Origin: Clostridia bacterium
Lineage (GTDB): Bacteria; Bacillota; Clostridia; Oscillospirales; RGIG5554
Direction: 5' to 3'
Assembly: GCA_017507855.1 (NCBI GenBank)
Contig: JAFWAE010000026.1
Location: 146,991 to 210,990 of the forward strand
Length of the DNA: 64,000 bases
Positions 29,473 to 64,000 of the stretch are shown piece by piece. Each line of letters begins with the position of its first letter. The stretch's first letter is position 1. The position numbers and the translations under genes are program-made. The notes below the pieces were generated by a model, which saw only the letters and a program-made list of their open reading frames with translations, was not told where the DNA came from and searched no databases.

Positions 29473-30873
29473 ATGGACATTAAACCCCGTATCGGGCGCT
29501 ACACGGTGTACGCCAGCGACTATCTGAAGCAAGACAGCGATGTGATGCTGGGCGGCGGCACGGACGAGACCGAGCTGCTGCAAGCCATTTTGGACAAGGC
29601 CGAGGAATGGGGCGGCCTGGTTTTGGAGGTGGACGGCGCCATCCTCATGCGGGGCATGCGCCTGCATTCCAACACCACCATTCATTGTGCCAATCAAAAC
29701 TGCGGCTTTTATTTGGCCGACGACACCAACGACGCCATCGTGCAGAACGCCCATTTGGACTACGACGTGATCCGCGACGAGAACATCCAACTGCTGGGCG
29801 GTACGTATAACATCAACTGCGAGCACCAGCAACGCAGCAAGGAGCCTCTGCCTCCGGGGGACGGAAAATACGGCAAGGAACAAAGCCGCTTTGAGGGAGC
29901 CCATTATTTGCACGGCCTGCGCTTTATCGGCGTGCGGGGACTGACTTTGCGGGATATGCGTACCGTGGACCAGCGCGTATGGGATGCGGTGTTCTGTAAC
30001 TGGGAGCATATCGTCATCGAGAATTTTGCCGTGGAGCTGCCTCATAATTACGTGGCGCAGAACCAGGACGGCCTCCATTTTTGGGGCCCCGGGCGCGACC
30101 TGTTTATCCACAACATCCGCGGTGGCTCAGGGGACGATTTCATTGCCCTGGCGCCCGACGAGCACGACCGCTGCTCCGACATTACCGACGTGCTTATTGA
30201 CGGCGTGTATTTGGAAAATGCGGATCAGGGCATCCGTATGCTGTCCCGCGGGCCGGGTAAGCTGGACCGCGTGACCGTGCGCAACGTGTACGGCACCTAT
30301 AAAAGCTGTGGCTTTTTCATCAACCCTTGGTTCGGCAAATGGTGCGATGACAGCGACGGCAATTACGGTGCCATTACCGTAGAAAATGTGCAGTTGCGCC
30401 AGACCTACCATAAGTACAAAGACTATTGCCGCCCCTTCCTGTTCCGTATCGGCGGGCGTATTCAAAGCCTGACGCTGAAGAACATTCAGGCCATCGAGCC
30501 CAACGATGCCCGCGAGCTGGTAGACATCAGCCATATTTACAGCGGTGACGCTGTAAAGGACAATTTCGTGGACATTGCCAACCTGACGGTGGACGGGCTG
30601 GAGGTCCTCAACCGCGAGGGGACGACGGACCCTGTGGATTACATTGCCGTGGACAGCAAGGTGGACCATTTGACGGTGCGCAACGTGCTGATCAACCGTG
30701 ACGGAAACCCTGCGGCGGATACGGTGGTGCACGTCAAGCCCGGGGCCAAGGTGGGCACGCTGGATCTGTCCGGCGTACAGGCCTACGGCATTGAGGCGGG
30801 TGTGAAAAACGAGGGCGATGTGAGCGTGTTGCGCCGCCACTGTGTCTACGTGAACGATCAGGAAGAAAAATAA
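29473..30873 (+). CDS. signal-less right-handed beta-helix protein, GH28-like (paralogue 1 of 3)
   Basis: 466 aa with no signal peptide. N-terminal pectate-lyase-3-like opening (GGGTDETELLQAILDKAEEWGGLVLEVDGAILM). Acidic motifs AQNQDGLHFWG and GGSGDDFIALAP resemble the GH28 NTD / G-DD motifs. ADQGIRMLS resembles RIK. GGAGG RBS is present. Confidence 0.75.
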   Translation: MDIKPRIGRYTVYASDYLKQDSDVMLGGGTDETELLQAILDKAEEWGGLVLEVDGAILMRGMRLHSNTTIHCANQNCGFYLADDTNDAIVQNAHLDYDVIRDENIQLLGGTYNINCEHQQRSKEPLPPGDGKYGKEQSRFEGAHYLHGLRFIGVRGLTLRDMRTVDQRVWDAVFCNWEHIVIENFAVELPHNYVAQNQDGLHFWGPGRDLFIHNIRGGSGDDFIALAPDEHDRCSDITDVLIDGVYLENADQGIRMLSRGPGKLDRVTVRNVYGTYKSCGFFINPWFGKWCDDSDGNYGAITVENVQLRQTYHKYKDYCRPFLFRIGGRIQSLTLKNIQAIEPNDARELVDISHIYSGDAVKDNFVDIANLTVDGLEVLNREGTTDPVDYIAVDSKVDHLTVRNVLINRDGNPAADTVVHVKPGAKVGTLDLSGVQAYGIEAGVKNEGDVSVLRRHCVYVNDQEEK

Positions 30874-30886
30874 GGGAGGCATTTCA

Positions 30887-32275
30887 ATGGAGATCAAACC
30901 CCGTATCGGGCGCTACACGGTGTACGCCTGCGACTACCTGAAGCAGGACAGCGATGTCATGAAGGGTGGCGGCACGGATGAGACCGAGCTGTTGCAGGCC
31001 ATTTTGGACAAGGCTGAGGAATGGGGAGGCTTGACCTTGGAGGTGGACGGCGCCATTTTGACTCGCGGCATGGCCATTCATTCCAACACCACCATCCATT
31101 GCGCCAACCAAAATTGCGGTTTCTTTTTGAAGGACGGCGCGGCCCAGCCTTTGGCACGAAACGCGCATTTAAGTTATTTGAACATCCACGACGAAAATAT
31201 TTCTCTGCTTGGCGGCACGTATAACCTGAACAGCCCCGGGCAAGATCGTGCCGAAGTGCCCGTGATCCCCACGGAAGGAGAGGAAAACCTTTTGTCCGCT
31301 TGGCTGATGGGTATTAAGTTTTTGGGTGTGCGCGGCCTGACCATGCGGGATATGCGCCTGGTCAACCAACGCACCTTTGCGGGTCTTTTTGCCAACTGGG
31401 AGCATATCGTCATCGAAAACTTTGCCATTGATCTGCTCGACGAACGGGACGCCCAAAACCAGGACGGCCTCCATTTCTGGGGCCCCGGGCGTGACCTGTC
31501 CATTCGCAATATCCGCGGAGGATCGGGGGACGACTTCATGGCCCTGGCGCCCGACGAGCACGATTTCAAGTCCGACATTACGGATGTACTCATCGACGGA
31601 GTATATTTGGAAAATGCCGACCAAGGGATCCGCATGCTGTCCCGTGGGCCGGGCAAGCTGGACCGCGTGACCGTGCGCAACGTGTACGGCACTTACAAGA
31701 GCTGTGGCTTTTTCATCAATCCCGCCTTCGGTAAGGGTCTGGGAGATTGCGAGGGCAATTATGGCTCTATTACCCTGGAAAACATTCAACTGCGCCAAAC
31801 CTACCATAAATACGCCCAGCACGCCCACGCCTTTTTGTTCCGCATCGGCGGCCGCATGCAAAGCCTGACGCTGAAAAACATTCAGGCCATCGAGCCCAAC
31901 GATGCCCGCCCGCTGGTGGATATCAGCCATATCTACGGCCATTGGAGCCGCACGGGAAGCTGTGTGGACATTGCCAACCTGACGGTGGACGGCTTGGAGA
32001 TCCTCAACCGCGAGGGCACCGTTGATCCTGCCGATTACATTTCCGTGGACGGCAAGGTGGACCATTTGACGGTGCGTAATGTGCTGGTCAACCGCGATGG
32101 CCATCCTGCCGCCGACCGCTTGGTGGCAGTGAAGGAGGCAGGTCAGGTGAAGAGCCTGATGATCTCTCAGGTGCAGGCTATGGGGATCGATAGCGTACTG
32201 GATTTGCAGGGCGGTACGGTGGAGCATGTGTACGCCGACCATGTGTTTTTGAATGACTTGGAGGTGTTGGGATGA
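30887..32275 (+). CDS. signal-less beta-helix protein, GH28-like (paralogue 2 of 3)
   Basis: 462 aa, colinear with paralogue 1. It shares a 33-nt identical stretch at the 5' end and a 38-nt identical stretch mid-gene with paralogue 1. The RBS context GGAGGCATTT is duplicated too. Confidence 0.75.
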   Translation: MEIKPRIGRYTVYACDYLKQDSDVMKGGGTDETELLQAILDKAEEWGGLTLEVDGAILTRGMAIHSNTTIHCANQNCGFFLKDGAAQPLARNAHLSYLNIHDENISLLGGTYNLNSPGQDRAEVPVIPTEGEENLLSAWLMGIKFLGVRGLTMRDMRLVNQRTFAGLFANWEHIVIENFAIDLLDERDAQNQDGLHFWGPGRDLSIRNIRGGSGDDFMALAPDEHDFKSDITDVLIDGVYLENADQGIRMLSRGPGKLDRVTVRNVYGTYKSCGFFINPAFGKGLGDCEGNYGSITLENIQLRQTYHKYAQHAHAFLFRIGGRMQSLTLKNIQAIEPNDARPLVDISHIYGHWSRTGSCVDIANLTVDGLEILNREGTVDPADYISVDGKVDHLTVRNVLVNRDGHPAADRLVAVKEAGQVKSLMISQVQAMGIDSVLDLQGGTVEHVYADHVFLNDLEVLG

Positions 32276-33636
32276 AATCCATTCTTCCTTCCTGCGGACG
32301 CTTTACCGTCCGCGCAAGCGATTACCTGAAGCAAGACAGCGACGTGATGCTGGGCGGCGGCACGGATGAGACCGAGCTGCTGCAGGCCATTCTGGACAAG
32401 GCACTTGAATGGGGAGGCCTTCATCTGATCGTGGACGGCGCCGTGCTGGTGCGCGGGCTGACCCTGCATTCCAACACCACCGTTGAATGCACCGATCAAA
32501 GCTGCGGCTTCTTTTTGAAGGACGGCGCGGCCAAGCCCTTGGTGAGCAACGCCAAGCTGAGTTATTCCCACATTCATACGGAAAACATTCGCCTGCTGGG
32601 AGGAACCTACAACCTCAACAGCCCCGGGCAGGAGAGAATGGAGAACGATCCCCCCGTCATCGAAGGGGATACGGACAAGCCCTTCAACTGGCTCATGGGC
32701 GTAAAATTCATCGGCGTGCGAAATCTGACTATGCGGGATATGCGTTTGGTCAACCAACGCACCTTCGCGGGTCTTTTTGCCAACTGGGAGCACGTGGTGG
32801 TGGAGAATTTCGCCATTGATCTGCCCGACAACCGCTTTGCCCAAAATCAGGACGGCCTTCATTTCTGGGGTCCCGGACGTGACCTTTGTATTCGCAATAT
32901 CCGAGGTGGCTCGGGGGACGATTTCATGGCCCTGGCTCCCGATGAGCACGATCTCAAGTCCGACATTACGGATGTGGTTATAGACGGGGTGTATTTGGAA
33001 GATGCGGATCAGGGGATCCGTATGCTCTCCCGCGGGCCGGGGCGGCTGGATCGCGTATTTATTCGCAACGTGTACGGCACTTACAAGAGCTGTGGCTTTT
33101 TCATCAATCCTTGGTTCGGTAAGGGCTACGGCGACAGCAAAGGCAATTACGGTGCCATTACCGTGGAAAATGTGAATCTGCAGCAGACCTACGATAAATA
33201 CGGCGATTTTTGCGATGCTTTTCTTTTCCGCATCGGCGGACGTATTCAAAGCTTAACGCTGAAGAACATTCAAACGGTGGATCCCAACGATGCCAGACCT
33301 TTGGTGGACGTCAGTCATGTGTACGGGAGCCGCATTCTGTCCGGCAACTTTACTCATGTGTCCAACCTGACAATAGACGGGCTGGAGGTGGTCAACCATC
33401 GCGGTACCAAAAAGAAGAACGCCTATATCAAGGTGGACACCCGCGTGGATAATCTGGTGGTGCGTAACGTGACCGTGGACCGAAGCGGGAATGAAAATGA
33501 CGATACCCTCATCCGCTTGACGGAGGAAGCACAGGTAGATGCTTTGACTGTGCGGGGTGTGCTGACCCGAGGAATTGGCAAAACGTTGGAGGGAAAGGCC
33601 AATCACACTCTTATTGAAGGGGAACTAAAGCTCTGA
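32272..33636 (+). CDS. signal-less beta-helix protein, GH28-like (paralogue 3 of 3)
   Basis: 454 aa. ATGA overlap with paralogue 2. Same conserved blocks, and a 47-nt stretch identical to paralogue 2 (CGCAACGTGTACGGCACTTACAAGAGCTGTGGCTTTTTCATCAATCC). Confidence 0.75.
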   Translation: MKSILPSCGRFTVRASDYLKQDSDVMLGGGTDETELLQAILDKALEWGGLHLIVDGAVLVRGLTLHSNTTVECTDQSCGFFLKDGAAKPLVSNAKLSYSHIHTENIRLLGGTYNLNSPGQERMENDPPVIEGDTDKPFNWLMGVKFIGVRNLTMRDMRLVNQRTFAGLFANWEHVVVENFAIDLPDNRFAQNQDGLHFWGPGRDLCIRNIRGGSGDDFMALAPDEHDLKSDITDVVIDGVYLEDADQGIRMLSRGPGRLDRVFIRNVYGTYKSCGFFINPWFGKGYGDSKGNYGAITVENVNLQQTYDKYGDFCDAFLFRIGGRIQSLTLKNIQTVDPNDARPLVDVSHVYGSRILSGNFTHVSNLTIDGLEVVNHRGTKKKNAYIKVDTRVDNLVVRNVTVDRSGNENDDTLIRLTEEAQVDALTVRGVLTRGIGKTLEGKANHTLIEGELKL

Positions 33637-54847: not shown

Positions 54848-55192
54848 ATGCCCGGTACTCGTAAATTGGGCAGGACCACCGACCACCGTATGTCTATGCT
54901 GCGCGGTCTGGTGACCTTCCTGCTTGAAAACGGTCGCCTGGAAACCACGCTCCACAGAGCGAAGGAAGTCAAGGCCATGACCGATAAGATGATCACCCTC
55001 GGCAAGCAAAACACCCTTGCTTCCCGTCGTCAGGCTTTGGCCTTTATCACCAAGGAAGCCGTTGTGGTGAAACTGTTTGATGAGATCGCTCCTGCTTATG
55101 CAGAGCGCAACGGCGGTTATACCCGTATTTATCAAACGGGCCCCCGCCGCGGTGACGCCGCCGAGATGGCCATCATCGAGCTGGTTAAGTAA
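54848..55192 (+). CDS. rplQ: 50S ribosomal protein L17
   Basis: [24 protein letters not shown]...GR..TT...AKE. Confidence 0.97.
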
Positions 55193-55202
55193 AAAAACGG
55201 TA

Positions 55203-55241
55203 AAAAGGACCTGCAAGGAACTCCTTGCGGGTTCTTTTTTT
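55203..55241 (+). terminator. rho-independent terminator ending the ribosomal/alpha operon
   Basis: GGACCTGCAAGG-AACT-CCTTGCGGGTTC followed by TTTTTTT. Confidence 0.85.
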
Positions 55242-55571
55242 GTCCGAAAAACACGAAAAAATGAAAAACTTTTTTTGCTCTTGAGGAACAGAGAATATTT
55301 TTGTGCAATTTTACCGAAAAAAAGGAGCTTTGAATAAAAACAAAAGGACAGAAATCATGGAGAAGGAGAAAAAACAAAAAAAATTAAAAAAATAAACAAA
55401 AAAAATTCACGAAAAACGCCCGCTTTTTTTGCGAAAAAAATAAAATGAAACAAAAATTTCAATTTTGAATGGCTGAAATGCACAAAAAAAATCATAAAAC
55501 TTGTGCAACATAAACAAAAAATAGGCTTTTTTCAAAAACAGTGTGAAAAAAACAGGACGCTTTTGTAGGAC

Positions 55572-55600
55572 TTGACAAAAAGCGGGGGTTGCAGTAAAAT
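55572..55600 (+). promoter_or_regulatory. candidate sigma-A promoter of the ABC/NHL-Yip1 locus
   Basis: TTGACA (55572-55577), 17-nt spacer, TAAAAT (55595-55600). Confidence 0.55.
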
Positions 55601-55690
55601 ATACTGTACCGATAAAGGGGAATGGTGTGAGTGTTTCCCTTTGAAAAAATCGGGTGTTTTGAACTTCTTTGTAAAACGGAGGAAAACCGC

Positions 55691-58597
55691 ATGAAGACAC
55701 ACAACGTTCTTCGCAAAGCGCTGATGGTCGTGGCCGTCGTGGCTTTGGCTGCTTCTATGGCATTGGGAGCGGCTGCAGCAAGGGTGGACGAAAATATCTT
55801 GGTATCCACCACTTACAACGACTACTACACTCAGCTGCTTAAAGCAGGCGCCAAGGATGCGACCAAGACCGCATCGGTGGACGTGATGGCTTATCTGCCC
55901 GATCAGACAACGGCAGAGGTCAAGACCATGACCGAAGGCGGCAAGACCGGCTTGTGGACCGGTGACAATGGCATGGTGGCCTTTAAGGTCAACGTGCCCC
56001 AGACCGGTTTCTACAATCTGCAGCTGACCTACTACCCCGTAGAGGGCAAGGGCAGCTCCATCGAGCGTATGCTGTATATCGACGGCGTGATCCCCTTTAA
56101 GGATGCACGTTATCTGTCCTTCTCCCGTGTGTTTAAGTACAACATTGAGAAGGTAGAGCACAGCCTGCTGTCCGCTGTGGATCGCCAGCTGTTCAAAAAA
56201 GATACTTCCGGCAATGAGATCCGTGCCGAGATCGTGGAAGCTCCCATGTGGATGAGCAAAATGCTCACCGACGATGTGGGGTATTATTCCAGCGCCCTGC
56301 GTTTCTATCTAACTGAGGGCGAGCACGTCCTGAGTTTCAGCTCCGTGCGTGAGCCTATGCTCATCGGCGGCATCGAGCTGTTCATTGAAGACGCCGTGCC
56401 CTCTTACGCCGACGTGAAGGAAGGCTACGATAAAAAGGGCTATGCTGCTGCGGATGGCGGCGAAGTGACCATTCAGGCAGAGAACCCCACCCTGATCTCT
56501 TCCATCACCTTGTACCCCGTGTACGACAAATCTTCGGCTAACTCACAGCCTCAGCATATCACCCAGATCCGTTTGAACTCCGTGGGCGGCAGCAAGTGGC
56601 AGCTCAACGGCGAATGGATGGAGTGGGAAGTGGACGTTCCTGCCGACGGTCTGTATCAGATCGTGCCCCGTGCCAGACAGAACGTCTATTCCGGTATGTT
56701 TGCTTCTCGCCGCATTTACATCGACGGCAAGATTCCCTTTGAGGAAGCTAAAAACCTTCGTTTTGCATATACCTCCGGCTGGCAGACCAATCCCCTGGGC
56801 AATGCAGACGGCGCTTACGCCTTCTACCTGACCGAGGGCACCCACGTCATCCGCATGGAAGCGGTGCTGGGCGATATGGCTGACCTGCTGCGTCGGGTAG
56901 AGGCCTCGCTGACGGCTTTGAACGGCGTGTACCGTCAGATCCTGATGATCACCGGCCCCAACCCCGACTTGAACCGCGACTACTCCTTCCGTTCTTCCAT
57001 TCCGGATGCGGTGGGTGAACTGGGCAAGCAGTCCAAGGAGCTGTACGAGATCTCCGCTTTGCTGGAAGAGATCACCGGCGAGAAGGGCGAATATTCCGTT
57101 CTGCTGGATAAGATCGCTTTCCAGACCGAGCAGATGAACTACGACGCCAACGACATTGCCAAGAACTTTACCTCCTTTAAGACCAACCTGGGCTCCCTGG
57201 GCACGTGGATCATGACGGCTCAGTATCAGCCCTTGGAGCTGGACTGCGTGACGTTGCAGCCCTACGGCGCTGAAACGCCTCAGGCCGAGCCCGGCTTCTT
57301 CAGAAGCCTTTGGTTCGAGATCCAGAGCTTCTTTGCTTCCTTCTTCTTTGACTACACCACCGTTGGCTCCACGTTGGATGCCGATTCCGGTGACCGCGTG
57401 GTCATCAAGGTTTGGAACGCCACCGGCCGCGACCAGGCCCAGATCATTCGTGAAATGATCGATAACGACTTTACCCCCAATACCAACATCGGCGTGGACT
57501 TCAGCCTGGTAGCCGCCGGCTCCCTGTTGCCTGCCACCTGCGCCGGTATCGGCCCCGATGTGAATATGTTCTCCGCCTCTTCGGATGCGGTCAACTACGC
57601 ACTGCGTTCCGCCGTGTTGGATATTTCCGGTATGCCCGGCTTCGACGAAGTGGCTTCCCGCTTCCACGAATCTGCCATGGTGCCGCTGACCTTTAACGGC
57701 GCTGTGTACGGCCTGCCCGAGCAGGAATCCTTCCCCATGATGTTCTACCGCAAGGACATCTTTGCCGAGCTGGGCATTGAGCCTCCTCAGACTTGGGAAG
57801 ACCTGTACGAGCTGGTGCCCCTGTTCCAGCAGAAGAAGATGGAGATCGGCTTCCTGGGCGAGGGCGGCATGCTGACCTTCCTGTATCAGTACGGCGGTGA
57901 ATTCTACCGTAACGGTGAAGGCTACGATTACCCCCGTTTCACCAATATCGATTCCGAAGAATACATCAACGCATTCGAGACCGTTTGCGAAATGTACACC
58001 ACCTATAAGTTCCCCTTGGCGTACGACTTTGCCAACCGTTTCCGTACCGGTGAGCTGCCCCTGGCTTTTGCAGACTACACCGTGTATAACAACCTGATCG
58101 TATTTGCCACCGAGCTTCGCGGCTTGTGGGAGTTCCTGCCCATTCCCGGTACCTTGATGGAAGACGGCACGATCAACCGAGCCACCTCCGCCACCGTGAC
58201 CACCGTCATGATGATGCGCGGCGCCGATCGCAGCGAGGAAGTGAAGCTGGGCGCTTGGGAGTTCATGAAATGGTGGACCAGCGCTCCCGTGCAGAGCACC
58301 TACGGCGTGGAATTGGAAGCCATCATGGGTCAGGCTGCCAAGTATCCCACCGCTAACCTGGAAGCCCTGGCCAATCTGCCTTGGTCTGCCGATGAATACA
58401 CGGCTCTGTCCCAGCAGTTCCAGGAGCTGGTCGGTACTCCCGAGGTTCCCGGTAACTACATCGTGACCCGTGATATCAGCTTTGCGTACAAGCGCGTGGT
58501 TACCCAGGGCGACAACCCTGCGGAAGCCCTGCTGGACTACGTAAAGGATATTAACGACGAGTTGGCCCGTAAACGTAAAGAGTTCGGGTTGGATTGA
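55691..58597 (+). CDS. very large extracellular solute-binding protein (family 1 type) with two N-terminal CBM-like modules
   Basis: Start is MKTHNVLRKALMVVAVVALAASMALGAAAA (signal/anchor, no lipobox Cys), with a GGAGG RBS. There are two internally similar modules: FKVNVPQTGFYNLQLTYYP...IERMLYIDGVIPFKDARYLSF and WEVDVPADGLYQIVPRARQ...SRRIYIDGKIPFEEAKNLRF. The C-terminal ~400 aa are SBP-like (VIKVWNATGRDQAQ..., FYRKDIFAELGIEPPQTWEDL). Confidence 0.85.
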   Translation: MKTHNVLRKALMVVAVVALAASMALGAAAARVDENILVSTTYNDYYTQLLKAGAKDATKTASVDVMAYLPDQTTAEVKTMTEGGKTGLWTGDNGMVAFKVNVPQTGFYNLQLTYYPVEGKGSSIERMLYIDGVIPFKDARYLSFSRVFKYNIEKVEHSLLSAVDRQLFKKDTSGNEIRAEIVEAPMWMSKMLTDDVGYYSSALRFYLTEGEHVLSFSSVREPMLIGGIELFIEDAVPSYADVKEGYDKKGYAAADGGEVTIQAENPTLISSITLYPVYDKSSANSQPQHITQIRLNSVGGSKWQLNGEWMEWEVDVPADGLYQIVPRARQNVYSGMFASRRIYIDGKIPFEEAKNLRFAYTSGWQTNPLGNADGAYAFYLTEGTHVIRMEAVLGDMADLLRRVEASLTALNGVYRQILMITGPNPDLNRDYSFRSSIPDAVGELGKQSKELYEISALLEEITGEKGEYSVLLDKIAFQTEQMNYDANDIAKNFTSFKTNLGSLGTWIMTAQYQPLELDCVTLQPYGAETPQAEPGFFRSLWFEIQSFFASFFFDYTTVGSTLDADSGDRVVIKVWNATGRDQAQIIREMIDNDFTPNTNIGVDFSLVAAGSLLPATCAGIGPDVNMFSASSDAVNYALRSAVLDISGMPGFDEVASRFHESAMVPLTFNGAVYGLPEQESFPMMFYRKDIFAELGIEPPQTWEDLYELVPLFQQKKMEIGFLGEGGMLTFLYQYGGEFYRNGEGYDYPRFTNIDSEEYINAFETVCEMYTTYKFPLAYDFANRFRTGELPLAFADYTVYNNLIVFATELRGLWEFLPIPGTLMEDGTINRATSATVTTVMMMRGADRSEEVKLGAWEFMKWWTSAPVQSTYGVELEAIMGQAAKYPTANLEALANLPWSADEYTALSQQFQELVGTPEVPGNYIVTRDISFAYKRVVTQGDNPAEALLDYVKDINDELARKRKEFGLD

Positions 58598-58627
58598 TTT
58601 TACTGAAGACGAGGGAGATGAAATTAT

Positions 58628-59572
58628 ATGGCTAAAGAACCCGTCAATGCGGTCAAAGAGCGCGCGGATTGGACCAAGCGCGATTGGCGCCGCTATGAAA
58701 TGAAAAAGAACAAGGTTGCCTATCTTTTCGTGGCTCCGTATATGATCCTCTTTACGGTGTTTACGGTGGCACCCGTTGTACTGTCCTTCTTGCTCAGCTT
58801 TACCTCATTTAACATGCTTGAGTGGCCCAAAATGGTGTGGCTGGACAACTACCTGCGCCTGTTCCTGGCAGACGATATCTTCTTGACGTCTGTGAAGAAC
58901 ACATTCCTCTTCGCGGTGATCACAGGCCCTGCTTCCTACCTGCTGTGCCTGTTCTTCGCCTGGTTTATCAACGAATTGACCCCCAAGATCCGTTCCTTCG
59001 TGACGTTGATCTTTTACGCACCTGCCATTGCCGGTAACGTGTACCTGATCTGGGGTATCCTCTTCTCGGGCGACTCCTACGGTTACGTCAACGGTTGGCT
59101 GCTGAAAATGGGCCTCATTTCCGAGCCCATCCTGTTCTTCCAGAACGTTAACTACATTTTCCCGCTGATCATCATGGTGGCCCTGTGGACCTCCCTGGGT
59201 ACCTCCTTCCTGACCTTTATCGCCGGTTTCCAGAACGTGGACCGTACGTATTACGAGGCCGGTGCGGTGGACGGCGTGAAAAACCGTTGGCAGGAGCTGT
59301 GGTTCGTGACCCTTCCTTTGATGAAAAACCAGATGCTGTTGAGCGCCGTGCTGGCTATCACCGGTGCTTTCGGCTTCGGCGCCATTATCGACGCCATGGT
59401 TGGGTTCCCGTCTCCTGACTACTGCGTACACACCATGGTACACCATCTGAATGACTACGGTAACCTGCGTATGGAGCTGGGCTATGCCTCCGCCATCGCC
59501 ACGCTGCTGTTCCTGATGATGATCGGCTCCAACTTCCTGGTGCGCAATCTGCTGAAGAGGGTGGGTAAGTAA
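58628..59572 (+). CDS. carbohydrate ABC transporter permease (MalF/CUT1-like)
   Basis: 314 aa, six hydrophobic segments. EAA-loop-like sequence YEAGAVDGVKNRWQELWFVTLPLM. Confidence 0.9.
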   Translation: MAKEPVNAVKERADWTKRDWRRYEMKKNKVAYLFVAPYMILFTVFTVAPVVLSFLLSFTSFNMLEWPKMVWLDNYLRLFLADDIFLTSVKNTFLFAVITGPASYLLCLFFAWFINELTPKIRSFVTLIFYAPAIAGNVYLIWGILFSGDSYGYVNGWLLKMGLISEPILFFQNVNYIFPLIIMVALWTSLGTSFLTFIAGFQNVDRTYYEAGAVDGVKNRWQELWFVTLPLMKNQMLLSAVLAITGAFGFGAIIDAMVGFPSPDYCVHTMVHHLNDYGNLRMELGYASAIATLLFLMMIGSNFLVRNLLKRVGK

Positions 59573-59573
59573 C

Positions 59574-60443
59574 ATGAAAAAATTTAAGATCAAAAAGATG
59601 CGCGCGCTGAACCGTTCTTACGGCGGCGACGTGGGCATCAACGTTTTCCTTCTCATCGTCGGCGCATTCATGGCCTTGCCCTTCGTATACGCCATCTGCA
59701 GTGCTTTGAAGCCCTTGGACGAGTTGTGGTATTTCCCGCCTCGCTTCTTCGTGGAAAACCCCACGCTGAAAAACTTTACCGAGCTGTTCCGCTTGATGTC
59801 CACCTCTTGGGTGCCCTTCTCCCGTTACATCTTCAACACGGTGTTCATCTCCGTGGTAGGTACGGGCGGTCACGTGCTGGTGGCTTCGCTGGCAGCTTAC
59901 GCCCTTTCCAAAATGAAGTTCCCCGGCCGCAACTTTATGTTTAAGGCTGTGGAATACTCCCTGATGTACAACGCGGTGGCTGCCGGTATCGCCATTTTCA
60001 TCATCCTGTCCGCTTTGGGCTGGATCGATACCTACCTGGCCATCATCATCCCCACCTTGGCCGGTTCTTTGGGTCTGTTCCTGATGAAGCAGTTTATGGA
60101 CTCCAACGTACCCGACCAGATCCTGGAAGCCGCTCATATCGACGGCGCAGGCGAATTCCGCATTTGGTGGCAGATCGCCATGCCCCTGGTAAAGCCCGCT
60201 TGGCTGACGCTGATCATCCTGATGTTCCAAAGCCTGTGGCAGACCGGTGCTTCCATCTACATCCAAAGCGAAGAGCTGAAGACCTTCTCCTATGCCATCA
60301 GCCAGGTATTGGCCGGCGGTATCGTGCGTACGGGTGCTGCTTCCGCTTCCACAGTGATCATGATGAGCGTGCCGATCCTGGTGTTCGTGCTGTCTCAGTC
60401 CAACGTTATTGAGACCATGGCCACTTCCGGCATGAAAGATTAA
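59574..60443 (+). CDS. carbohydrate ABC transporter permease (MalG/CUT1-like)
   Basis: 289 aa. EAA-loop sequence LEAAHIDGAGEFRIWWQIAMPLVKPA. Confidence 0.9.
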   Translation: MKKFKIKKMRALNRSYGGDVGINVFLLIVGAFMALPFVYAICSALKPLDELWYFPPRFFVENPTLKNFTELFRLMSTSWVPFSRYIFNTVFISVVGTGGHVLVASLAAYALSKMKFPGRNFMFKAVEYSLMYNAVAAGIAIFIILSALGWIDTYLAIIIPTLAGSLGLFLMKQFMDSNVPDQILEAAHIDGAGEFRIWWQIAMPLVKPAWLTLIILMFQSLWQTGASIYIQSEELKTFSYAISQVLAGGIVRTGAASASTVIMMSVPILVFVLSQSNVIETMATSGMKD

Positions 60444-60459
60444 GGGGGAAATGAGAAAA

Positions 60460-63198
60460 ATGAAAAACACCCTTATCAAGATCCTGGTGCTCACCTTGGC
60501 GTTGCTCATGGCCATCGGGCCGTTGACTGCCAGCGCCGACGCACCCTATATCACCTATATCTACGGCTACGGCCAGCAGGCGCTGGAATCTCCTCACGCC
60601 TACGTGCCCTATAAGATCTACGAATCCGCAAAAATGGAATACGGCGCCCTGAAGGATGCCCAGGACCTTTATGTGGATAAAAACACCAACTACGTCTACA
60701 TTGCCGATACGGGCAACAACCGTATCGTCTGCTTGGACGAAAACTTTAACCTGCGTTTTGTGCTGGATTGGTTCTTTAGTGATATGACCATTCCCGTAAC
60801 CGCAGAAGACGGCATCTACGAGGTGGATGAAAACGGCCAGCTGCAGTACCCCATCGGGGAAGACGGCAACGGCTACTACATCTACAACGACGAGGGTCAC
60901 GCTTACGTGATCCGCGATGCCGAAGGCAACCGTATGTTCATCGAAGGTTTTGTGCTGGAAGTGAACGTGGAAGCCTTGGAAGAGCTGTGGGCCAGCAAAA
61001 ATATCGACATTACCCAGCAGCTGGAGGACCGCTTGAAGGAAGCTTACGACAGCGCCCTGAGCGAGGCCATCCAGGATGCGGCCAATGCCGGTAACGACTT
61101 CGACGAGGAAGCCTTTGAGCTGAACGAAGAAGAAAAGGCTCTGGTCCGCCAGACCCTGATCATCGAGCACCTGGAAGAGGATGAGGTTCCCTACGACAAG
61201 GTCCCCACCACCTTCTATCCCGAAGACAGCAAGGGCCGTGTATTGCCCTTGGGTACTTGTGCGACCGAAGTGCCTCAGGACTTTATCGACACCTATATGC
61301 CCGGCTGGCAGGTTGGCGACAAGCCCCAGCCCGTGATTGAAAAAGAAGATCAGCGTCCTGTGGTCATGCAGTATGTGGACGGCTTTAACAAGCCCCAGGG
61401 TCTGTTCGTTTGGGACAACGGTGACATCTACGTGGCTGACACCGAAAATATGCGTTTGGTCGTCTTCGATAAGGAAGGCAACTTCAAGCGCATCATCCAG
61501 GCTCCCGAATCCGATATTTTCCCCGCCCAGTTCACCTACAAGCCCAAGGCCTTGGCGGTGGACGGCGCCGGCCGTTTGTACGTGGTCGCTTCCTCTGCAA
61601 ACTGGGGTATCCTTTCCATGACGCCTGACGGCGAATTTGAAAGCTTCCTGGGTGCCCAGAAGGTGCGTCCCCGTCTGTTTGACCTGTTTACCCAGCTGTT
61701 TATGTCCGAAAAGAAGCGCCGTCTGCTGGTTAAAACGGTGCCTACGGAATACAACAACATCACCATTGATGAGGGCGGCTTTATGTACGCCACCATCTCC
61801 TCCATTGCCGACTATACTCAGCAGGCTTACATTTGGGCCCGCGATAAGAGCGGCGACTATTCTCCCGTTAAGAAGCTGAGCCCCTCCGGTGTGGACGTGA
61901 TGAAGCGCTTCGGCTCCTGGCCCCCCTCCGGTGAGGTGGACGTGGAAATGGGCAGCGCGTACGTGTACGGCTCCAGCAAGTTCGGTGCCTCCACCATCGT
62001 GGACGTGGCTCTGGGCCCCAACGACACCTGGTCCATCCTTGACCAGAAGCGTTCCCGCGTATTTACCTACGACGAGGAAGGCCGTTGCCTGTTCATCTTC
62101 GGTTGCCCCGGTAACCAGTTCGGTAACTTCAGCAAGGCTACCGCCATGGCCTATCAGGGCGAGCTGATCGTGGTGCTGGATGCCGGCAACCAGAGCATTA
62201 CCACCTTTAAGCGTACCGAGTACGGCGATGCCATCGTGCAGGCCATTACTCTGCACGCCGAACGTAAGTATGACGAGTCCGTGGCCTACTGGCAGGATAT
62301 TCTGAAGAGAAACACCAACTTCGAGATCGCCTACGTAGGTATCGGTAAGTCCCTGCTTCGTAAGGAGCAGAACAAGGAAGCCATGGAGCAGTTCAAGCAG
62401 GCTTTCGATACCGAAAACTACTCCAAGGCCTTTAAGGCATACCGTAAAGAGGTCATTGAAAAGTACATTCTGCTGATTCCCGTGGCTGCGGTGCTGATCT
62501 ACTTCGCTTTGAAGGCCTTCAGCAAGCACGTGACCAAGGTGAACCTGAAAGGGCAGAAGGAGATCCGCAAGAGGACTTTGTGGGAAGAGCTGATGTACGG
62601 CTTCCACATTATCGTCCATCCCTTTGACGGTTTCTGGGATATGAAGCACGAAAAACGCGGCGGCGTGCGCGGTGCGACCGTGTACATTCTGCTGACGGTG
62701 CTGACCTTCGTGTTCCAAAGCGTGGGCAAGGGCTACATCTTCGATCCCTATGCTGCGTATTCCGACGTCAGCATCTTCTCCAGCGTGGCTACCATTGCTT
62801 TGCCCGTGTTGCTGTGGTGTACGGCTAACTGGGCCTTGACCACTTTGTTTGACGGTGAAGGTAGCTTTAAGGATATCTACATGGCCACCGGCTACTCCCT
62901 GGTACCCCTGATCATGTTCCTGATCCCCTGGACCATCGCTTCGAACTTTATCACCTTGGAAGAAGCTTCTCTGCTGAACTTCTTCTCCACCCTGGCTTAC
63001 GTATGGACCGGCTTGCTGCTGTTCCTGGGCTCCATGGTGGTACACGACTATTCCTTCGGTAAGAACATCTTGACCGTGATCGGTTCTATTGCCGGTATGG
63101 GTGTGGTGATCTTCTTGGTCAGCCTGTTTATGAACCTGACCACCCAGATCTACAACTTCATCCGCAGTATCGTCAACGAGATCACCTACCGAATGTAG
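60460..63198 (+). CDS. secreted NHL-repeat beta-propeller / TPR-like / C-terminal Yip1-family membrane domain fusion protein
   Basis: Signal peptide MKNTLIKILVLTLALLMAIGPLTASA. NHL-like blades: VYIADTGNNRIVCLDENFNL, IYVADTENMRLVVFDKEGNF, LYVVASSANWGILSMTPDGEF and VVLDAGNQSITTFKRT. A helical repeat follows (ESVAYWQDILKRNTNFEIAYVGIGKSLLRKEQNKEAMEQFKQAF). Then HPFDGFWDMKHEKRG plus five hydrophobic helices, typical of bacterial Yip1 proteins. The alternative in-frame ATG at 60451 lies only 2 nt from the RBS. Confidence 0.8.
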   Translation: MKNTLIKILVLTLALLMAIGPLTASADAPYITYIYGYGQQALESPHAYVPYKIYESAKMEYGALKDAQDLYVDKNTNYVYIADTGNNRIVCLDENFNLRFVLDWFFSDMTIPVTAEDGIYEVDENGQLQYPIGEDGNGYYIYNDEGHAYVIRDAEGNRMFIEGFVLEVNVEALEELWASKNIDITQQLEDRLKEAYDSALSEAIQDAANAGNDFDEEAFELNEEEKALVRQTLIIEHLEEDEVPYDKVPTTFYPEDSKGRVLPLGTCATEVPQDFIDTYMPGWQVGDKPQPVIEKEDQRPVVMQYVDGFNKPQGLFVWDNGDIYVADTENMRLVVFDKEGNFKRIIQAPESDIFPAQFTYKPKALAVDGAGRLYVVASSANWGILSMTPDGEFESFLGAQKVRPRLFDLFTQLFMSEKKRRLLVKTVPTEYNNITIDEGGFMYATISSIADYTQQAYIWARDKSGDYSPVKKLSPSGVDVMKRFGSWPPSGEVDVEMGSAYVYGSSKFGASTIVDVALGPNDTWSILDQKRSRVFTYDEEGRCLFIFGCPGNQFGNFSKATAMAYQGELIVVLDAGNQSITTFKRTEYGDAIVQAITLHAERKYDESVAYWQDILKRNTNFEIAYVGIGKSLLRKEQNKEAMEQFKQAFDTENYSKAFKAYRKEVIEKYILLIPVAAVLIYFALKAFSKHVTKVNLKGQKEIRKRTLWEELMYGFHIIVHPFDGFWDMKHEKRGGVRGATVYILLTVLTFVFQSVGKGYIFDPYAAYSDVSIFSSVATIALPVLLWCTANWALTTLFDGEGSFKDIYMATGYSLVPLIMFLIPWTIASNFITLEEASLLNFFSTLAYVWTGLLLFLGSMVVHDYSFGKNILTVIGSIAGMGVVIFLVSLFMNLTTQIYNFIRSIVNEITYRM

Positions 63199-63220
63199 CA
63201 GAGGAAAGGAGATGAATCTG

Positions 63221-64000
63221 ATGAAAATGCGCAAATTGATTGCTCTGACCTTGGCTTTGACCATGCTGGCCGGCGCCTTTGGCGTGGCCGCTTCGGCAGA
63301 CGACTCGGCAGTGGCGGAAACCCCTGCGGCTACTCAGGATGCGCCCGCTGCTACGGTGGAGCCCCCTGTTACCCAGGAGCCCGTTGAGGAAGAGCCTGCA
63401 ACTCCTTCCATCGATCTGTCCCAGATCACGCCCGACCAGCCTGAAACGGGTGAGGCCTCCTCTTATCAGCATATGACTTATGAGTCTGAAGAGCATAAGC
63501 TGGCCACCATGACCAAAATGATGTCCAACGACCGCTACGACTTCTACATCCATTTGCAGAACGGCGACGTTGCCGTGGTGGACAAGGTTTCCGGCCAACG
63601 CTGGTTCTCCACTCCCTACGACTACAATACCGGCTCCACTTCCAAGGACGTGAAGGCCCGTATGCTGTCCCAGCTGGTCATCAAGTACTACGATAACATT
63701 AACCAAAAGACCCTGTACAGCTTTTCCGAGGCTGCCCAGAAGAATCAGATCAAGATCTTTTCGGTGAGCACCGGCGTGCGTGTGGAATACACCTTTGGCC
63801 GTGCGGAACAGCGCTTGCTGCTGCCCATCCGCATTCCCAAGGAAAGCATGGAGGAAAACATCCTCAGCAAGCTGGATGCTAAGGCCGCCAAAGCCTTTAA
63901 AAACGCTTACAAACTGTACGATCTGAGCACCGTGACCAACGAAAAGGTGCGTGAGGAGTACGAAAAAACCTACGGTATTACCGAGGACAACCCCCTCTAC
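63221..64000 (+). CDS. secreted protein, probably DUF5696-like (N-terminal part; runs off the window end)
   Basis: Hand translation: MKMRKLIALTLALTMLAGAFGVAASADDSAVAETPAATQ...HKLATMTKMMSNDRYDFYIHLQNGDVAVVDKVSGQRWFSTPYDYN... Signal peptide is present, with AAGGAG 9 nt upstream. It is open to the window edge. The family assignment comes from my memory of the conserved neighbourhood and is unverified. Confidence 0.7.
   Translation, partial: MKMRKLIALTLALTMLAGAFGVAASADDSAVAETPAATQDAPAATVEPPVTQEPVEEEPATPSIDLSQITPDQPETGEASSYQHMTYESEEHKLATMTKMMSNDRYDFYIHLQNGDVAVVDKVSGQRWFSTPYDYNTGSTSKDVKARMLSQLVIKYYDNINQKTLYSFSEAAQKNQIKIFSVSTGVRVEYTFGRAEQRLLLPIRIPKESMEENILSKLDAKAAKAFKNAYKLYDLSTVTNEKVREEYEKTYGITEDNPLY

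Follow-up and report, generated by a model that had tools for sequence, protein, structure and literature searches.

A Gram-positive polysaccharide utilisation locus (gpPUL) is defined by a transporter and a regulator that occur together with a recognised CAZyme, and some CUT1 sugar importers of Firmicutes, a group that includes MalEFG and MsmEFG, use a shared MsmK/MsmX ATPase. In B. subtilis, the Yip1 protein YknW modulates the assembly of the YknXYZ ABC complex and is needed for it (PMC4887032). The locus analysed here lies at the end of a 64,000-nucleotide stretch of DNA from a Clostridia bacterium (the window), and is a genuine, widespread and uncharacterised variant of the CUT1 ABC glycan-uptake locus, for which we infer a substrate, an enzyme activity and a mode of assembly. 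The sequence-only reading of this DNA had allowed for a published account of the module; we found no publication on it, and the cassette is apparently unstudied.

All genes and signals described below are on the forward strand. The cassette opens with the gene of a giant solute-binding protein (SBP; 55691-58597, 968 aa), followed by permeases P1 (58628-59572, 314 aa) and P2 (59574-60443, 289 aa), an NHL/TPR/Yip1 fusion (60460-63198, 912 aa, or 915 aa from an alternative start at 60451) and, as gene 5, a DUF5696 ORF starting at 63212 or 63221, of which the first 263 or 260 aa are encoded before the window ends at 64000. The gaps between these genes are 30, 1, 7/16 and 13/22 nt, depending on the start chosen, and the same-strand block with tiny gaps and its own promoter-like element, as it had first been read, was recovered at its coordinates. 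According to the gene calls, the last gene upstream is L17 (rplQ), and the intrinsic terminator of the rpoA-rplQ ribosomal operon (55215-55237, a 9-bp stem then a T-run) isolates the cassette transcriptionally. A 450-nt A-rich spacer before the SBP gene gave no Rfam element at threshold. It contains, 90 nt before the SBP gene begins, a sigma-70-type promoter-like element (55572-55600, TTGACA-17 nt-TAAAAT), which as a consensus match is the best and sole one of 11/12 positions within 55100-64000. Long antisense ORFs also occur and were rejected as genes: their GC3 is 0.47-0.55 against 0.71-0.76 for the forward genes and they have no Pfam match, and for these two reasons we take the forward strand as the true coding strand.

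When we extended the locus downstream with a contig (L001) that is 99.98% identical to the window across 13.5 kb, we found the complete cassette: giant SBP, P1, P2, NHL-TPR-Yip1, DUF5696 (910 aa), P3 and P4. The five-gene block described earlier thus stands for genes 1 to 5 and fell short in extent, as the unit has seven genes and the window ends inside the fifth. In window-equivalent coordinates, permease P3 lies at about 65973-67115 (380 aa), permease P4 at about 67131-68150 (339 aa) and a strong terminator with a 14-bp stem at about 68171-68202, so the unit is bounded here by one promoter-like element and one terminator. The order SBP, P1, P2, Yip1, DUF5696, P3, P4 was found in every one of the 61 Yip1-anchored genome loci whose contig was long enough and in 80 of 80 DUF5696-anchored metagenome loci, with truncation at contig ends only and with median intergenic gaps of 1-41 nt. 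The supposed invariant company of the Yip1 and DUF5696 proteins was therefore borne out from both anchoring directions. The Yip1-fusion protein, which marked the cassette in each anchored locus that we tested, is present in at least 592 species genomes; the cassette is a rigidly conserved operon of Clostridia and Bacilli, with hundreds of species carrying it, in which the seven-gene core is invariant and the flanking genes are not conserved.

The giant SBP bears a signal peptide that looks cleavable and lacks a lipobox cysteine, an absence already noticed from its sequence, and the lipobox is likewise missing in 56 of 65 orthologues. Its AF2 model (pLDDT 86.1, pTM 0.82) agrees with the earlier description of an oversized binding protein of about 970 aa with CBM-like modules ahead of the SBP fold. 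Module 1 (aa 55-231, 55853-56383, from AF2 secondary structure) and module 2 (aa 259-392, 56465-56866) are CBM6/35-like beta-sandwiches and are related to each other (BLASTP E 7e-9), which marks an internal N-terminal duplication. They are followed in the model by a four-helix bundle linker without family assignment (aa 396-511, 56876-57223; helices 396-421, 438-462, 467-484 and 488-511) and by the SBP fold proper, of the CUT1 oligosaccharide-binding type (aa 570-968, 57398-58594; Pfam and Foldseek). The latter matches SBP_bac_1 (E 3e-19, aa 583-868, 70.6 bits against a 26-bit cut-off) as well as SBP_bac_8, and resembles oligosaccharide SBPs (5ysb, 3uor, 9xf5) with Foldseek TM values of 0.7-0.8. 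Indeed, all the domains expected from the first reading were recovered in Pfam (SBP_bac_1, SBP_bac_8, BPD_transp_1, NHL, Yip1 and DUF5696), with CBM_35 in module 1 as a weak match of 20.4 bits, under its 28-bit gathering score. Among 38 SBP orthologues, Pfam matched Golvesin_C in 18, CBM_35 in 13 and GH115_C in 5. A module 2 profile built from 16 orthologues matched a stretch of the CITase 5x7g (E 2.4e-5), which we take to be its CBM35, and gave non-significant values against CBM6 and CBM35 structures (E 0.03-0.6). As modelled, the N-terminal part of the protein consists of two divergent CBM6/35-like sandwiches in tandem and a bundle of four helices, with carbohydrate binding predicted for the sandwiches.

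Both P1 and P2 contain BPD_transp_1; P1 is of the MalF/UgpA type with its EAA loop at aa 210, and P2 of the MalG/UgpE type with its EAA loop at aa 185. Downstream of the DUF5696 gene, the UgpA-like P3 and the MalG-like P4 form a second MalF/MalG-type pair, and EAA motifs are retained in all four permeases, so that the membrane subunits of a CUT1 importer (a MalF-like and a MalG-like BPD_transp_1 protein with EAA loops) are present twice. Identity between P2 and P4 is 23%, and the alignment of P1 with P3 covers 58 aa only; by sequence, the two pairs are products of ancient divergence and not recent copies. To our knowledge, there is no precedent for a single SBP serving two translocons. No ORF with a Walker-A plus LSGGQ motif was found across the whole 64-kb window. 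The absence of a nucleotide-binding subunit and of a regulator, first noted for the visible part, extends to the completed seven-gene locus; across 80 loci, an ABC ATPase-like ORF occurred within 10 kb of the cassette in four and adjacent to it in none.

Pfam, profile and hydropathy data indicate that the gene 4 protein starts with a signal peptide and an NHL beta-propeller on the extracellular side, continues with TPR and a single TM helix, and ends, after a basic loop in the cytoplasm, in a 5-TM Yip1 domain. The Yip1 domain (62605-63114) matched with E 5.5e-16 (59.3 bits against a gathering score of 28.6) and NHL with E 1.4e-15, and hydropathy places five hydrophobic segments at aa 734-891, preceded by one extra TM helix. 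Profiles of gene 4 matched TPR proteins and NHL propellers, with E 4e-18 for the propeller against 1rwi, the sensor domain of PknD, and more than 1105 homologues were found. Within the propeller lies an acidic insertion of about 195 aa (60793-61380, 24% Asp plus Glu) that was seen in none of 21 aligned relatives and is thus specific to this organism. Three Yip1 motifs, HPFDGFWD, LTTLFDGEG and HDYSxGKN, are invariant and are predicted by hydropathy and the positive-inside rule to face the cytoplasm. The statement that the Yip1 and DUF5696 components have no assigned role holds for DUF5696, as we found no paper naming it, but not entirely for Yip1, in view of the part that YknW plays in ABC complex assembly (PMC4887032).

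The window holds the N-terminal 260 aa of the secreted DUF5696 protein (63221-64000), and a Pfam scan of the 263-aa version of this fragment gave no match. In contrast, the full-length protein on L001 matched DUF5696 (PF18952) over model positions 5-612 of 612 (E 3.8e-186, 620.7 bits against 25.6), with no GH family in the same scan. When we compared the DUF5696 profile with GH129, we found E 1.4e-7 across 130 residues for NagBb and E 1.3e-4 for ZgGH129, where a single sequence gave E 0.42. The AF2 model (pLDDT 84.9) matched ZgGH129 (5opq, E 1.4e-32, TM 0.71) and NagBb (5wzn, E 9e-26, TM 0.73) in Foldseek, followed by GH101, GH31 and GH36, all of them alpha-glycosidases, and shows the GH129 architecture of an N-terminal beta-sandwich, a (beta/alpha)8 barrel and a C-terminal beta-sandwich. 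By profile and model, DUF5696 is probably a distant relative of the GH129/GH101 retaining alpha-glycosidases, and this kinship makes it a candidate enzyme for the "processing" step suggested in the sequence-only reading. Conservation is complete at residues D363, D389 and N793, and at D711 (92%) and E807 it lies in the 92-99% range. D711 occupies the expected strand-4 nucleophile position, as estimated by sequence offset from an HMM-aligned G-W motif and with NagBb catalytic-residue numbers that we take to be those of the NagBb paper. In GH101 and GH129 a Glu, the acid/base, follows barrel strand 5; by the same kind of offset estimate, DUF5696 has Asn747 there (98% conserved), and no general acid/base was recognised in the conserved columns or the offset comparison. 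Because the position of the strand-5 Glu is taken by Asn747, DUF5696 might be non-classical as a retaining hydrolase, or no enzyme at all. No lipobox was found in 67 of 68 DUF5696 proteins.

The 109 immediate downstream neighbours of the cassette span 102 Pfam families, with GH76 in 4 only. A GH76 lipoprotein directly follows the cassette in these loci (L086, L087, L054 and L168, three from Paenibacillaceae and one from C. thermosuccinogenes), and in 3 of the 4 a GH125 gene and a second SBP lie upstream, GH125 being confined to Paenibacillaceae, whose loci also carry a GntR/LacI-type regulator around the cassette. GH76 and GH125 are alpha-1,6-mannan enzymes, and their position next to the cassette provides alpha-mannan as a substrate lead. 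However, most loci are without a linked CAZyme, regulator or ATPase, and given this scarcity of linked CAZymes the alpha-mannan link may be lineage-specific. A second, conventional SBP lipoprotein of about 500 aa lies beside the cassette in roughly 19 of 105 loci. Housekeeping genes (ribosomal operon, AlaRS, IscS/NifU, PFOR, MnmA, CarB) surround the cassette in the Clostridia of gut and rumen, this organism among them, and we found neither a regulator nor a classified CAZyme within the operon or about 5 kb on each side of it here.

We lean towards the view that the cassette is a self-contained seven-gene operon for glycan uptake, the glycan being probably alpha-linked. Its component set, with a giant SBP, two importers, a Yip1 protein and an alpha-glycosidase-shaped protein, makes it most likely that a carbohydrate polymer is captured, cut and imported. 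The non-lipidated, secreted SBP would hold the polymer at the cell surface through its two CBM6/35-like modules, while the secreted DUF5696 protein, as a (beta/alpha)8 homologue of the GH129/GH101 type, would trim or depolymerise it. The SBP domain would bind the oligosaccharide products, as may the neighbouring lipoprotein of about 500 aa in about a fifth of genomes, and the products would enter via two distinct MalFG-type translocons, P1P2 and P3P4, both presumably powered by an MsmK/MsmX-like ATPase encoded elsewhere. The NHL-TPR-Yip1 protein would organise the assembly: its ectodomain offers the sole obvious membrane retention for the two anchorless secreted proteins, and the conserved motifs on its cytoplasmic side could provide the coupling to the transporter. 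A bolder version, which we consider doubtful, would join all seven proteins in a single supercomplex of the membrane. In this monoderm 'utilisome' the propeller/TPR arm would dock the SBP and an alpha-glycosidase of a new family directly over two ABC translocons, as the main alpha-mannan or related alpha-glycan route of gut and rumen Clostridia. If so, polymer capture and cleavage would be physically coupled with the import of two classes of product, and DUF5696 would be the first known representative of its own alpha-glycosidase family.

The same genes could be read as two independent ABC importers in one operon, with DUF5696 as a non-catalytic, GH-derived receptor for P3P4. The order mirrors two CUT1 units on either side of the Yip1 gene (SBP-P1-P2 and DUF5696-P3-P4), the DUF5696 gene occupies the usual SBP slot ahead of two permease genes, the permease pairs are very divergent, and an Asn stands where the acid/base Glu is expected. 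However, the strong conservation of D363, D389, N793, D711 and E807 is more typical of an active site, the conventional second SBP found beside some cassettes could serve P3P4, and we know of no type I importer with a receptor outside the SBP fold; we regard this arrangement as unlikely. We also think it improbable that the NHL-TPR-Yip1 protein acts not as a scaffold but as a transmembrane sensor or gate, with a propeller that detects glycan and cytoplasmic motifs that switch the transporters. Its propeller does resemble the NHL sensor domain of PknD, which is thought to detect an extracellular ligand, a cytoplasmic location is predicted for the family's three best-conserved motifs, and post-translational control would then replace the transcriptional regulator that the operon lacks. 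Yet the protein has no recognisable signalling output domain, its topology comes from hydropathy only, and YknW, the sole characterised bacterial Yip1 protein that we found, acts on complex assembly.

A housekeeping role, in which the cassette recovers or remodels an envelope glycopolymer of the cell itself and not food, seems very unlikely to us. The core genes around the cassette in gut and rumen Clostridia would fit it, as would the near-consensus promoter without a regulator and the wide distribution of the Yip1-fusion protein, but genomic context says little on this point since the flanks are not conserved. Moreover, the locus around the Paenibacillaceae cassette, with its GH76, GH125 and GntR/LacI-type regulator, is plainly one for foraging, and CBM-tagged binding proteins fit the capture of an external polymer.

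Returning to uptake of an external glycan, the cassette is similar to MalEFG and MsmEFG in its SBP_bac_1 fold near oligosaccharide binders and its MalF/MalG-type permeases with EAA loops, and to the importers with a shared ATPase in lacking an ATPase gene of its own. It differs from CUT1 importers in an SBP of 968 aa with two CBM-like modules, a helical bundle and no lipid anchor, as well as in its two divergent permease pairs, its fixed Yip1 fusion and GH-like secreted protein, and the absence of a regulator. Like YknWXYZ, it encodes a bacterial Yip1-domain membrane protein with an ABC transporter, although YknYZ is a MacB-type exporter and no ectodomain is described for YknW there (PMC4887032), whereas the Yip1 domain of the cassette carries a fused ectodomain of 640 aa, made up of the NHL propeller and TPR, and goes with importers of type I. 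DUF5696 shares the beta-sandwich/barrel/beta-sandwich architecture of GH129 (the alpha-N-acetylgalactosaminidase NagBb and the 3,6-anhydro-D-galactosidase ZgGH129) and of the GH101 endo-alpha-GalNAc-ases, with sequence similarity at the barrel start that includes the G-W motif after strand 2; unlike them, it has about 12% identity, a separate Pfam family, about 200 extra N-terminal residues and an unrecognisable acid/base.

As in gpPULs (Sheridan et al. 2016, PMC5320581), a transporter lies beside a candidate extracellular glycan-degrading protein, and the Paenibacillaceae cassette is even embedded with GH76, GH125 and a regulator. In contrast to gpPULs, the cassette itself has no regulator and a single unclassified DUF as its enzyme candidate, and its core is fixed while its surroundings vary; the full set of CAZyme, transporter and regulator is absent here and occurs in the Paenibacillaceae relatives only. 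The earlier idea of polymer capture, processing and import is strengthened by the candidate enzyme and the CBM6/35-like modules, but the likeness to a PUL is a loose one: DUF5696 aside, the operon lacks a recognised CAZyme as well as a regulator, and most genomes, this one included, have none close by. No component is homologous to those of the Bacteroidota Sus system (SusCD, surface glycan-binding proteins and enzymes), and the envelope is monoderm with ABC rather than TonB-dependent import; the likeness, a functional analogy drawn from genes alone, would lie in capture by CBM-like modules, extracellular cleavage and oligosaccharide import.

The seven-gene cassette that begins near the end of the window is widespread, rigidly conserved and uncharacterised. 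Its fourth gene, which encodes an NHL-TPR-Yip1 membrane protein (the Yip1 fusion) and is a marker of the cassette at all anchored loci that we tested, has relatives in at least 592 genomes in an alignment scan with one genome per species. When the seven proteins were used as tblastn queries around these relatives (80 loci kept), the order SBP>P1>P2>Yip1>DUF5696>P3>P4, i.e. a giant solute-binding protein, a permease pair, the Yip1 fusion, a secreted DUF5696 protein and a second permease pair, was found on one strand in all 61 of the 61 loci with sufficient contig, the remaining patterns all being contig-end truncations. The median gaps along the cassette were 41, 1, 12, 21, 17 and 15 nt. In a reverse test anchored on DUF5696, where metagenome contigs were scanned with a 10-sequence alignment as the query, the order was the same in 80/80 loci, barring truncations at contig ends, and the invariant company of the two proteins proposed by the sequence-only reading is thus borne out from both anchors. 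An exhaustive profile search recovered 4138 DUF5696 clusters (50% identity) at E ≤ 1e-30.

In the window, five ORFs are tightly packed on the + strand at 55.6-64.0 kb, as had been read from the sequence. The SBP gene (55691-58597; 968 aa, with GGAGGA before the ATG) is followed by those of P1 (58628-59572; 314 aa), P2 (59574-60443; 289 aa) and the Yip1 fusion (60451 or 60460 to 63198; 915 or 912 aa), and by a gene 5 ORF that starts at 63212 or 63221 and runs open past the window end, all on the + strand and with gaps of 30, 1, 7 or 16, and 13 or 22 nt. Public gene calls start the Yip1 fusion at 60460 (912 aa), three codons past 60451, and this called form is present on five public metagenome contigs. 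RpoA and nearby proteins have exact counterparts in an uncultured "Clostridia bacterium" MAG. The domain assignments were recovered by Pfam, with SBP_bac_1 and SBP_bac_8 in the SBP (aa 583-870), BPD_transp_1 in P1 and in P2, and Yip1 (E 5.5e-16), NHL (E 1.4e-15) and a weak TPR match in gene 4. A promoter-like element, TTGACA-17-TAAAAT (55572-55600, + strand), is the sole 11/12 match in the region and lies downstream of the rplQ terminator (55215-55237). The spacer between them (55240-55570) has an unusually high A content and numerous A6-A8 tracts, with a local GC of 0.48 vs 0.56 for the window and no RNA family match. We rejected the idea that the 500-nt spacer upstream of the SBP gene encodes a riboswitch or leader RNA, as no Rfam family reached threshold and the sub-threshold matches were located over the rplQ terminator.

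Long ORFs also occur on the - strand opposite the cassette genes, at 60406-63264 (952 aa, longer than the real Yip1 gene), 56543-57667 (374 aa) and 59385-60515 (376 aa). We rejected them as genes on their GC3 (0.47-0.55 vs 0.71-0.76 for the + strand genes) and their lack of Pfam matches; they are shadow ORFs of coding sequence with high GC3, whose codon-position GC they show in mirror image. Elsewhere in the window, a tandem array of three paralogous genes (29473-33636; ~455-465 aa each) encodes proteins whose N-termini are almost the same, with the pattern M[DE]IKPRIGRYTVYA.DYLKQDSDVM.GGGTDETELLQAIL.

The locus is completed on a public contig, L001, that is 99.98% identical to the window across 13.5 kb and adds 9 kb beyond it. 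There, the full-length gene 5 product has 910 aa (Pfam DUF5696 match of 620 bits) and is followed by P3 (380 aa, UgpA/MalF-like) and P4 (339 aa, MalG-like), both with BPD_transp_1, and, 21 nt past the P4 stop, by a terminator with a 14-bp stem. Since L001 adds these two genes and then a terminator, the transcription unit has seven genes; the five-gene block described earlier holds for the window but not as the count of the full unit. Past the terminator lies a 166-aa predicted lipoprotein gene without family match (L001:17811-18311, window-equivalent ~68270-68770), which was rejected as an eighth member given the strong intervening terminator and the absence of a match in related loci (0/160). 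The N-terminal cytoplasmic tail of P3 (75 aa; L001:15514-15740, window-equivalent ~65973-66199) is Lys/Pro/Ala-rich with KPAKPVK repeats, and its relatives are too short to have one (median 325 aa, maximum 341). In one metagenome sample (L002:7395-10166), a ~34-bp indel breaks a DUF5696 gene that is otherwise identical into two ORFs (176 and 725 aa), which reflects either a natural inactivation or an assembly error. The EAA loops are kept in all four permeases. The sequence-only reading had noted no nucleotide-binding subunit in the visible part of the locus. A motif scan for ORFs that combine Walker A with LSGGQ found none throughout the 64-kb window, and an ABC ATPase-like ORF in only 4/80 related loci, each time distant from the cassette. 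MsmK has roughly 370 aa, and the ABC_tran neighbours (281 aa, ABC_tran plus AAA_21, at varying positions) were rejected as MsmK, being too short.

In the AF2 model of the SBP (pLDDT 86.1), an N-terminal hydrophobic helix precedes two beta-sandwiches, one spanning aa 55-231 and the other aa 259-392, whose sequences are related (E 7e-9). Next come four helices in a bundle (aa 396-511) and, at aa 570-968, an SBP fold that resembles oligosaccharide binders. The profile of the sandwich region matched a stretch of CITase 5x7g (E 2.4e-5) that we take to be its CBM35; weaker, non-significant matches were presumably to CBM6 and CBM35 structures. The orthologues gave weak matches to Golvesin_C (18/38), CBM_35 (13/38) and GH115_C (5/38). 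The lipobox is absent from 56/65 SBPs and likewise from 67/68 DUF5696 proteins, and neither protein of this organism has a C-terminal hydrophobic segment.

A 38-sequence DUF5696 profile matched the GH129 enzymes NagBb (5wzn; E 1.4e-7, aligned where the barrel begins) and ZgGH129 (5opq, 8rzk; E 1.3e-4). The AF2 model (pLDDT 84.9, pTM 0.83) resembled ZgGH129 (E 1.4e-32) and NagBb (E 9e-26), both at a target TM of 0.71-0.73, and next GH101, GH31 and GH36; these are all (beta/alpha)8 alpha-glycosidases, and these four families are retaining enzymes. The fold is common to DUF5696 and GH129 but the sequence similarity is marginal, and DUF5696 cannot be filed in GH129; placed beside GH129 and GH101, it is a specific candidate for founding a new family of glycoside hydrolases. 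C-terminal extensions bring some orthologues to 1500-2061 aa (L074:12219-18404, L066:12140-17854, L064:12148-16644), and members of up to ~2500 aa occur in the representative library; the extensions were considered as anchoring or CBM domains and rejected, having no Pfam matches. Our literature search found no paper mentioning DUF5696 or PF18952.

By hydropathy, the signal peptide of the Yip1 fusion is followed by an ectodomain of 640 aa, a single TM helix, a loop that is strongly basic and a set of five TM helices, and the invariant motifs of the family (HPFDGFWD, LTTLFDGEG and HDYSxGKN) are predicted to face the cytoplasm. In this organism the NHL propeller is broken up by an acidic insertion of ~195 aa (60793-61380), in which Asp and Glu make up 24% of the residues; the insertion is present in 0/21 aligned relatives (~710 aa long). 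The literature search found no paper in which a Yip1 protein is described alongside a sugar ABC system.

The best-supported reading, in which we place moderate confidence, is a self-contained capture-cleave-import unit for a glycan that is probably alpha-linked. The CBM-tagged SBP would capture the glycan, the GH129-like DUF5696 protein would trim it outside the cell, and the SBP, with a second SBP where present, would feed two distinct MalFG-type translocons powered by an MsmK-type ATPase supplied in trans. The Yip1 fusion may organise the assembly, since the SBP and DUF5696 lack anchors and the Yip1 protein YknW modulates the assembly of an ABC complex (PMC4887032). Alternatively, the fusion could be a sensor or gate, which we consider unlikely; its propeller profile matches NHL propellers, the PknD sensor domain among them. 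It is similarly doubtful that P1/P2 and P3/P4 belong to unrelated importers, the latter pair being served by DUF5696 as a receptor without catalytic activity. The two permease pairs diverged anciently: P2 and P4 are 23% identical, and P1 and P3 are alignable around the EAA loop only. Among 100 DUF5696 sequences D363, D389, N793 and P775 are invariant, and D711, E807, H782 and N747 are conserved at 92-99%. Estimated by offset from the HMM-aligned G-W motif, with the NagBb catalytic-residue numbers that we assume, D711 would occupy the expected strand-4 nucleophile position; the same offset puts Asn747 at the strand-5 position, where GH101 and GH129 presumably carry Glu.

That the cassette serves housekeeping, in envelope recycling, seems very improbable to us. 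Its flanks are variable, the commonest neighbours being housekeeping genes (PFOR, VanY, IscS/NifU, RNase H, MnmA, ROK, AlaRS, CarB), and the 109 immediate downstream genes fall into 102 Pfam families. Conserved CAZymes or regulators in the flanks were rejected: flank-ORF clustering and Pfam gave housekeeping genes, and no partner occurred in more than ~20% of ~160 loci. Among neighbours that hint at a function, the commonest is a second SBP-like lipoprotein (475-514 aa, same strand, ~19/105 loci), and a GntR/LacI-type regulator cluster lies near the cassette in 6 loci.

Returning to the capture-cleave-import reading, a few loci offer clues to the substrate. GH76 is an endo-acting and GH125 an exo-acting alpha-1,6-mannan enzyme. 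Three Paenibacillaceae loci (P. castaneae L087, Bacillus sp. FJAT-28004 L054 and the Paenibacillaceae MAG L168) carry a cytoplasmic GH125 and a second SBP upstream of the cassette and a GH76 lipoprotein directly downstream. In L087 and L054 the locus goes on with a GntR/LacI-type regulator and then another GH76, this one leaderless; the L168 contig stops at the first GH76. In C. thermosuccinogenes (L086) the cassette lies between a second SBP on its upstream side and a GH76 on its downstream side. A Paenibacillus GH76/GH125/ABC cluster has likewise been read as serving alpha-1,6-mannan use (PMC12827396). GH76 or GH125 tblastn queries gave no match in the 159 other related loci or the window, and GH76 makes up 4/109 downstream neighbours (Pfam). 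This organism's SBP is closest to Paenibacillaceae versions (46-48% identity). Alpha-mannan may thus be the substrate, as a lead and not a conclusion. We know of no alpha-mannan route described in Firmicutes. The GH76/GH125 link in culturable Paenibacillaceae and C. thermosuccinogenes makes direct growth and expression tests on yeast alpha-mannan possible, as well as knockouts in culturable carriers where genetic tools exist.

Two of the seven cassette proteins have no known function, and the Yip1 fusion could give a first biochemical handle on bacterial Yip1 domains beside ABC transporters. To our knowledge, glycan uptake by Firmicutes in the gut and rumen is much less understood than the Sus systems of Bacteroidota. 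The sequence-only reading had likened the locus to a Gram-positive analogue of a PUL; the capture-cleave-import logic of that analogy stands as a proposal, but the cassette lacks the regulator and classified CAZyme by which a gpPUL is recognised. Its SBP and permeases are those of a CUT1 ABC sugar importer, and the cassette would work like such an importer, extended towards gpPUL or Sus-like logic.
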